Of a stretch of 64,000 nt of DNA, positions 3,071 to 3,113 are shown piece after piece (positions within the stretch are counted from its first letter, which is position 1; the number at the start of each line of letters is the position of its first letter). The stretch spans positions 30,436 to 94,435 of the forward strand of contig CAUQGN010000005.1 in the NCBI GenBank assembly GCA_963517565.1, in the 5' to 3' direction. This stretch comes from an uncultured Leptotrichia sp. (GTDB lineage Bacteria > Fusobacteriota > Fusobacteriia > Fusobacteriales > Leptotrichiaceae). Both the position numbers and the translations under genes were made by a program. Under the pieces are notes generated by a model, which was given only the letters and a program-made list of their open reading frames with translations, searched no databases and was not told where the DNA came from.

Positions 3071-3113
3071 CTGTAATAATTACAATTTTAAATTTTTACA
3101 TAGTTATAGTCAA
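3071..3113 (-). promoter_or_regulatory. Sigma70-type promoter of the autotransporter gene with an overlapping 7-1-7 PerR/Fur-type box
   Basis: The minus strand reads TTGACT (3113-3108), 17 nt, TAAAAT (3090-3085). The inverted repeat TTGTAATtATTACAg (3085-3071) begins at the last base of the -10. The perR promoter at 50232-50274 has the same layout. Confidence 0.55.

Follow-up and report, generated by a model that had tools for sequence, protein, structure and literature searches.

The window analyzed here is a stretch of 64,000 nucleotides (G000:C5:30436-94435) from an oral-type Leptotrichia genome of 2.12 Mb and 30% G+C, represented by a 91%-complete assembly. At its left end lies the 5′ part of a gene for a giant Fap2-like autotransporter, and elsewhere in the window are a dps gene and a perR-like gene followed by a ferritin gene (Table 1). 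The initial annotation placed the autotransporter in the Fap2/RadD class of adhesins, an assignment borne out by a match of 1149 bits, in six stretches, to the Fap2 ectodomain of Fusobacterium nucleatum (PDB 9QE7). Fap2 and RadD of F. nucleatum are giant type Va autotransporters, and the Leptotrichia protein is of similar size. It also contains the conserved N-terminal region that the paper on the Fap2 structure noted in Leptotrichia autotransporters. Its C-terminus (...GFRAIY) is a typical aromatic end and the last 400 residues appear barrel-like, a judgment made by eye only; a Pfam search at E ≤ 0.01 returned no domain for the protein, including no autotransporter domain. The protein is a predicted adhesin, Fap2-like in its sequence.

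Upstream of this gene, on the minus strand, a 17-nt spacer (ATAACTATGTAAAAATT, 3107-3091) separates TTGACT from TAAAAT, and the pair agrees with the promoter consensus at 10 of 12 positions. A 15-bp inverted repeat of 7-1-7 geometry, TTGTAATTATTACAG (3085-3071), begins at the last base of TAAAAT, just as it had first been described. This repeat, the adhesin box, lies 86 nt 5′ of the autotransporter ATG, which we read at 2984-2982, a correction of one base to the position (2985) originally given. It matches the consensus of the Bacillus subtilis PerR box at 11 of 14 defined positions and the consensus of the genus at 13 of 14. A weight-matrix search of the adhesin upstream region (2985-3660) found no second box or half-site array above 8 bits, and an Rfam scan of positions 2800-3800 at E ≤ 1 found no RNA family in the 670-bp upstream region and leader.

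Table 1 Genes and predicted regulatory features in the window.
Feature	Position	Strand	Remarks
Fap2-like type V autotransporter gene (3638 aa), 5′ part	3..2984	-	Continues past the left end of the window; whole gene G000:C5:22503-33419
Shine-Dalgarno AAGGAG of the autotransporter gene	2991..2996	-	Kept in the alignment of orthologous upstream regions
7-1-7 inverted repeat TTGTAATtATTACAg, candidate PerR operator of the adhesin promoter	3071..3085	-	One mismatch to the genus consensus TTGTAATnATTACAA
-10-like hexamer TAAAAT	3085..3090	-	Its final T doubles as the first base of the box
Conserved island GATTGACTATAACTATG (GATTGGCTATAATTATG in relatives)	3099..3115	-	From orthologue upstream alignments; includes the -35-like hexamer plus a second -10-like sequence, TATAAT (TATAAC here)
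-35-like hexamer TTGACT	3108..3113	-	TTGGCT in most orthologues
dps promoter and perfect box	39048..39095	+	TTGACA (39048-39053), 17 nt, TATAAT (39071-39076), 4 nt, TTGTAATTATTACAA (39081-39095)
dps gene	39121..39567	+	Real start probably ATG 39131, behind AAGGAG
Ferritin gene	49169..49666	-	36 nt 3′ of perR, probably co-transcribed
perR-like gene	49702..50118	-	Fur family; only Fur-family gene found in the genome
perR promoter and box	50232..50274	-	TTGACA (50274-50269), 17 nt, TAAAAT (50251-50246), TTGTAATgGATACAA (50246-50232)

A Fur-family regulator and its predicted operator

The initial annotation had the adhesin controlled by the Fur-family protein encoded in the window, and our searches support the identity of that protein as the sole member of its family in the genome. 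It matches the Pfam FUR model (PF01475) with 88.4 bits against a cut-off of 23.1, and its best match in the PDB is PerR of B. subtilis (2FE3, E 5e-24). The equivalents of nine 2FE3 residues are all identical, namely those of His37, Asp85, His91, His93 and Asp104 and those of Cys96, Cys99, Cys136 and Cys139. Its best NCBIfam model is likewise PerR (NF052545), with a score of 102.8 bits that lies under the equivalog cut-off of 180; on this evidence the regulator is PerR-like by sequence and is not a certified NCBIfam PerR equivalog. No separate Fur or Zur gene was detected in this 91%-complete assembly. One further candidate for the family, a 148-aa protein at G000:C2:114657, was set aside: it scored 17.7 bits, below the cut-off, and is a winged-helix protein of another kind, MarR-like in appearance when judged by eye. 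In another species, a partial second perR (G006:C1:486887-487126, L068), covering residues 57-138 and containing one internal TAA, lies ~550 nt 3′ of the intact perR and is probably the remnant of a duplication.

The promoter of perR and ferritin, read directly on the minus strand, shows the same junction of -10 and box as the adhesin promoter, and the dps promoter carries a perfect palindrome; both had been pointed out in the first reading of the window. That reading had also located the difference from the B. subtilis PerR box TTATAATNATTATAA at symmetric positions 3 and 13, and the genus consensus TTGTAATnATTACAA indeed has G/C there instead of A/T. In this genome, the boxes at dps, at the gene for a trxB/ahpF-like flavoprotein reductase (trxB-like), at ahpC and at perR, which have 0, 0, 1 and 2 mismatches, respectively, each follow a near-consensus TTGACA-17-TATAAT promoter. 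Across the genus, the box occurs in the same register at 15 of 15 ahpC promoters, at the trxB-like promoters of 15 of 16, at the perR promoters of 14 of 16 and at the dps promoters of 13 of 16, the last count requiring a box with at most two mismatches after a TTGACA promoter. A contig end interrupts the locus in at least two of the cases without a box. The register differs from gene to gene, as the box begins 3-4 nt after the -10 at dps and trxB, overlaps its last T at perR and lies 15 nt beyond it at ahpC. Conservation of the box at these four promoters is the signature of a PerR-type regulon, whose genus-wide operator motif is, by prediction, TTGTAATnATTACAA.

A genome-wide scan, proposed in the initial annotation as a check on the motif, showed both enrichment and association with promoters, the latter at dps, ahpC, trxB-like and perR. 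When we scanned with TTGTAATNATTACAA, we found two perfect sites and 14 with one mismatch. Of the 16, eight are in intergenic DNA (302 kb, 21% G+C), where order-1 and order-3 Markov models predict 0.97-1.4. Intergenic sites with two mismatches are not enriched (24 against 21 expected). Within the window, nine matches with at most two mismatches compare with 2.35 expected, and none of 100 shuffles reached nine. The genes beside the eight intergenic sites, named by reading of their translations, are those for dps, the trxB/ahpF-like reductase, ahpC, the autotransporter, pflB, RNase R and a 259-aa hypothetical protein, together with a divergent pair formed by an E1-alpha-like gene and a 152-aa ORF. 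Neither catalase nor haem genes were recognized beside sites with at most one mismatch.

Several individual sites merit description. The pflB gene (C1:83773-86004), outside the window, has a box, TTATAATGATTACAA, at G000:C1:86050-86064, ~20 nt after a -10 of the GGTATAAT type. A pflB site of at least 13 bits is present in 13 of 15 species of the genus, and this conservation indicates that pflB probably belongs to the PerR regulon, a membership that would be unexpected for an oxygen-sensitive enzyme. Also outside the window, the site TTGTAACCATTACAA (G000:C8:60057-60071) has the second-highest weight-matrix score of the genome, 21.3 bits; it is the one between the divergent E1-alpha-like gene, which would encode a TPP-dependent dehydrogenase, and the 152-aa ORF. 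The ahpC promoter (G000:C12:37178-37215; L069-L083) has a conserved half-site, TATAATGTAAT, directly after the -10 in 15 of 15 species, which may be a second, overlapping PerR contact. Finally, the one-mismatch site CTGTAATTATTACAA, at 28815-28829 of the window, lies inside a fused diacylglycerol kinase-PAP2 gene (28282-29172) and is one of eight coding-region sites, whose density is close to the chance density expected for intergenic DNA.

Position and conservation of the adhesin box

When a weight matrix is trained on the genus-wide dps, perR, ahpC and trxB-like sites and nothing else, the adhesin box receives 13.6 bits, a value that reflects a G at position 15, where all training sites have A. 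Nine intergenic sites reach at least 13.5 bits, compared with 2.2 expected, and the band from 13.5 to 15 bits holds three, compared with 1.4 expected. The score of the adhesin site in one genome is therefore not decisive, and judged from score alone the site has a roughly even chance. These figures, the departure of the last base from an otherwise invariant A and the expectation of about one site with at most one mismatch in intergenic DNA are consistent with another reading, in which the likeness to a PerR box is accidental and the palindrome, conserved within the promoter or 5′ leader, could be the site of another regulator or a leader element, with no PerR control. Conserved sequence on either side of the box, GATTGGCTATAATTATG before it and AGTAATAAAG after it, would fit such a reading as well. 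Two independent lines of evidence, position and conservation, raise the odds for the adhesin site as an operator. First, when intergenic positions are counted strand by strand, just 2.9% of them fall 0-21 nt after a promoter-like pair that agrees with the consensus at 10 or more of 12 positions. Given this rate, a site with at most one mismatch directly behind a good promoter-like match is expected by chance ~0.03-0.07 times per genome, which argues against a fortuitous resemblance.

Second, of 15 adhesin orthologues drawn from two genera, 10 retain the box, and the proteins of the box-keeping orthologues are 62-87% identical in the N-terminal 400 aa. The sequence is the identical TTGTAATTATTACAG in five and is changed at one or two positions in three. 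In the remaining two, which are the most distant orthologues (62-67% protein identity), the palindrome TTGTAATTATTACAA is perfect, and it is so where the downstream flank is unconserved, again contrary to what a chance resemblance would predict. In all ten, TTGRCT is invariant and the box starts exactly 22 nt after it, whereas the 13 nt directly 5′ of the box vary freely. Two constrained islands held at a fixed spacing are the pattern expected of a promoter element and an operator. As a control, we followed a site of equal quality upstream of RNase R, of the type that chance would produce: among 15 other species, a single one retains it. The adhesin box does sit in a conserved block of ~60 bp, and part of its conservation could thus serve another purpose. 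With both lines of evidence taken together, we consider an accidental likeness to a PerR box unlikely and favor a PerR-type operator. No site with at most one mismatch was found at 17 paralogous autotransporter loci. A metagenome scan with the left island GATTGRCTATAAYTATG matched 120 stretches, and nearly all of the 80 listed were unrelated environmental sequences; among those 80 were four Leptotrichia-like promoters, all four with the box, a result that adds little.

The placement of the predicted operator relative to the start of transcription depends on which hexamer serves as the -10. When orthologues are aligned, TAAAAT, the -10 of the initial annotation, lies within the spacer whose sequence varies; only the -35-like TTGRCT and the box are conserved, and orthologues have TAATAT, TTAGAT, AAAAAT, ATAAAT or TCAGTT in its place. 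The conserved TATAAT of the left island is the other candidate for the true -10; no -35 or TG extension lies upstream of it, and its use could place the box at about +10 to +25. Since the box starts 22 nt after TTGRCT, it would extend over either the -10/+1 region or the beginning of the transcript, up to about nucleotide 25. With either hexamer, the predicted operator would fall somewhere from the -10 to about +25, a location suited to repression. The earlier proposal of repression is compatible with both placements; the hexamer to which it was tied is not conserved among orthologues.

PerR could also bind at this site and activate or fine-tune transcription, or act only as a roadblock to read-through from the upstream gpmI gene, in which case adhesin expression would fall or stay the same in response to peroxide. 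In favor of such readings, several orthologues have a weak or variable core promoter, and the DNA separating gpmI (3658-5211) from the adhesin gene showed no terminator-like site. However, the other boxes of the regulon lie on or just 3′ of a near-consensus pair of -35 and -10 hexamers, the classic position for a repressor, and the adhesin box is also downstream of a conserved -35-like element. We regard activation, fine-tuning or a pure roadblock as very improbable, and repression remains our preferred interpretation of the site.

The box is absent from 5 of the 15 orthologues, including that of the closest relative, whose protein is 97% identical. In this species (L007, G004:C7:37977-42176), the -35-like TTGACT has become TAAGCT and the box has become TTTTAACTATTATAT, a decay by clustered substitutions within upstream DNA that can otherwise be aligned. 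The same species lacks the pflB box and keeps those at dps, perR, ahpC and trxB-like. By this pattern, its losses are a species-specific pruning of the predicted regulon.

Beyond the genus, the operator seems, from the sequences of perR promoters, to have diverged within the order. In the sister family f2 (L274-L293), perR promoters of genera g20, g21, g22 and g27 carry (A/T)TATAATnATTACAA, and most g15 genomes have a different palindrome, TAACTAATCAAGTTA, right after the perR -10. In the one sister-family genome that was cross-checked (G072), all 10 Fap2-like genes start more than 1 kb from any box, and the link to an adhesin is so far confined to Leptotrichia and its sister genus.

Peroxide and metal as candidate signals

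We consider it likely that the adhesin promoter carries a functional PerR-type operator, as predicted from its position and conservation, and the gene is probably switched on by hydrogen peroxide. From sequence, we infer binding, the sign of regulation, the start of transcription and peroxide as the signal, and propose the following scheme. A dimer of metal-loaded PerR would occupy TTGTAATnATTACAA at the downstream end of the adhesin core promoter and block RNA polymerase, either at initiation or during early elongation. Hydrogen peroxide would oxidize PerR and cause its release from the DNA. Repression would thereby be lifted from the adhesin and also from dps, ahpC, the trxB/ahpF-like reductase, perR-ferritin and, probably, pflB.

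The Fur-family protein might instead bind the adhesin promoter mainly as a sensor of iron, manganese or zinc, in the manner of Fur or Zur, so that the adhesin follows metal supply. Metal is the main alternative signal because this protein is the only Fur-family regulator of the genome and has a ferritin gene in its operon, with which it is probably co-transcribed; its predicted control of dps and its score below the PerR equivalog cut-off are also compatible with a metal sensor. The box itself gives little guidance. The B. subtilis Zur box, reportedly described by Fuangthong and Helmann in 2003, is one that we take to be TCGTAATnATTACGA; on that assumption it shares G3/T4 with the Leptotrichia box and differs from it at positions 2 and 14. 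The B. subtilis boxes of the three Fur-family regulators differ from one another at two symmetric positions (PMC4324032). Because the Leptotrichia box is equally close to the Zur and PerR boxes of B. subtilis, assignment to PerR rests on the content of the regulon and the residues of the regulator, both of which favor peroxide as the signal. No iron or zinc uptake gene is among those beside the eight intergenic sites with at most one mismatch, the conserved targets are the peroxide-defence genes ahpC, trxB/ahpF-like reductase and dps, and the five PerR regulatory ligands are kept, including the equivalent of Asp104. A role chiefly in metal sensing appears rather unlikely on these grounds, and we retain peroxide as the probable signal.

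The proposed circuit has parallels with PerR of B. subtilis, which represses katA, ahpC, mrgA (encoding a Dps homologue) and perR from boxes within or near their promoters (PMC3953959). Both systems, by prediction in Leptotrichia, have a 7-1-7 repeat in or beside the promoter, a core regulon with a Dps homologue, ahpC and an autoregulated perR, and a regulator with five regulatory ligands and a Cys4 zinc site. In contrast to B. subtilis, Leptotrichia is a diderm of the Fusobacteriales without a Fur or Zur paralogue, and its predicted regulon includes a giant autotransporter and probably pflB, in addition to the difference in operator at positions 3 and 13. A known kind of regulatory element is, by this prediction, wired to an unusual target, a giant adhesin.

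In biological logic, the closest precedent is the OxyR-apiA circuit of another oral Gram-negative bacterium, Aggregatibacter actinomycetemcomitans. ApiA is presumably a trimeric autotransporter. Hydrogen peroxide from Streptococcus gordonii activates OxyR in that species and raises transcription of apiA (Ramsey and Whiteley 2009, in PMC4076886). In both cases, the gene of an outer-membrane surface protein is placed under a peroxide sensor, by prediction in Leptotrichia, and hydrogen peroxide from a neighbor or host changes, or would change, the surface properties of the cell. The two circuits differ in that OxyR is a LysR-type activator whereas the Leptotrichia regulator is of the Fur-family repressor type, and in that ApiA is small whereas the Leptotrichia protein is a Fap2-type protein of 3638 aa. 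Moreover, the Aggregatibacter circuit was demonstrated experimentally and that of Leptotrichia is predicted. Our literature search turned up nothing on PerR in Leptotrichia or on control of Fap2 or RadD by PerR, and neither PerR nor OxyR appears in a 2025 review on F. nucleatum under aerobic stress.

There are several implications. First, our analysis defines a predicted PerR operator for the genus, TTGTAATnATTACAA, and a compact regulon of dps, ahpC, the trxB/ahpF-like reductase, perR-ferritin and probably pflB. Regulation of adhesins of the Fap2/RadD class is poorly understood, and gene regulation in Leptotrichia almost wholly so. Second, a homologue of the regulator occurs in 142 of 151 genomes of the order, so the approach is transferable to Fusobacterium. 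Third, natural loss of the operator in some species would provide ready-made strains for comparison, and the model predicts that one adhesin among many is inducible by hydrogen peroxide.

More broadly, a tentative possibility is that Leptotrichia uses peroxide from plaque streptococci or host phagocytes as a cue for adhesion and not only as a stress, its PerR regulon having been extended to one Fap2-class adhesin among at least 10 paralogues and kept so across two genera. If true, redox sensing would be linked to attachment to a partner or host. Such a link would parallel OxyR-apiA with a different sensor, and peroxide of streptococcal or host origin would shape which adhesins anaerobes display.
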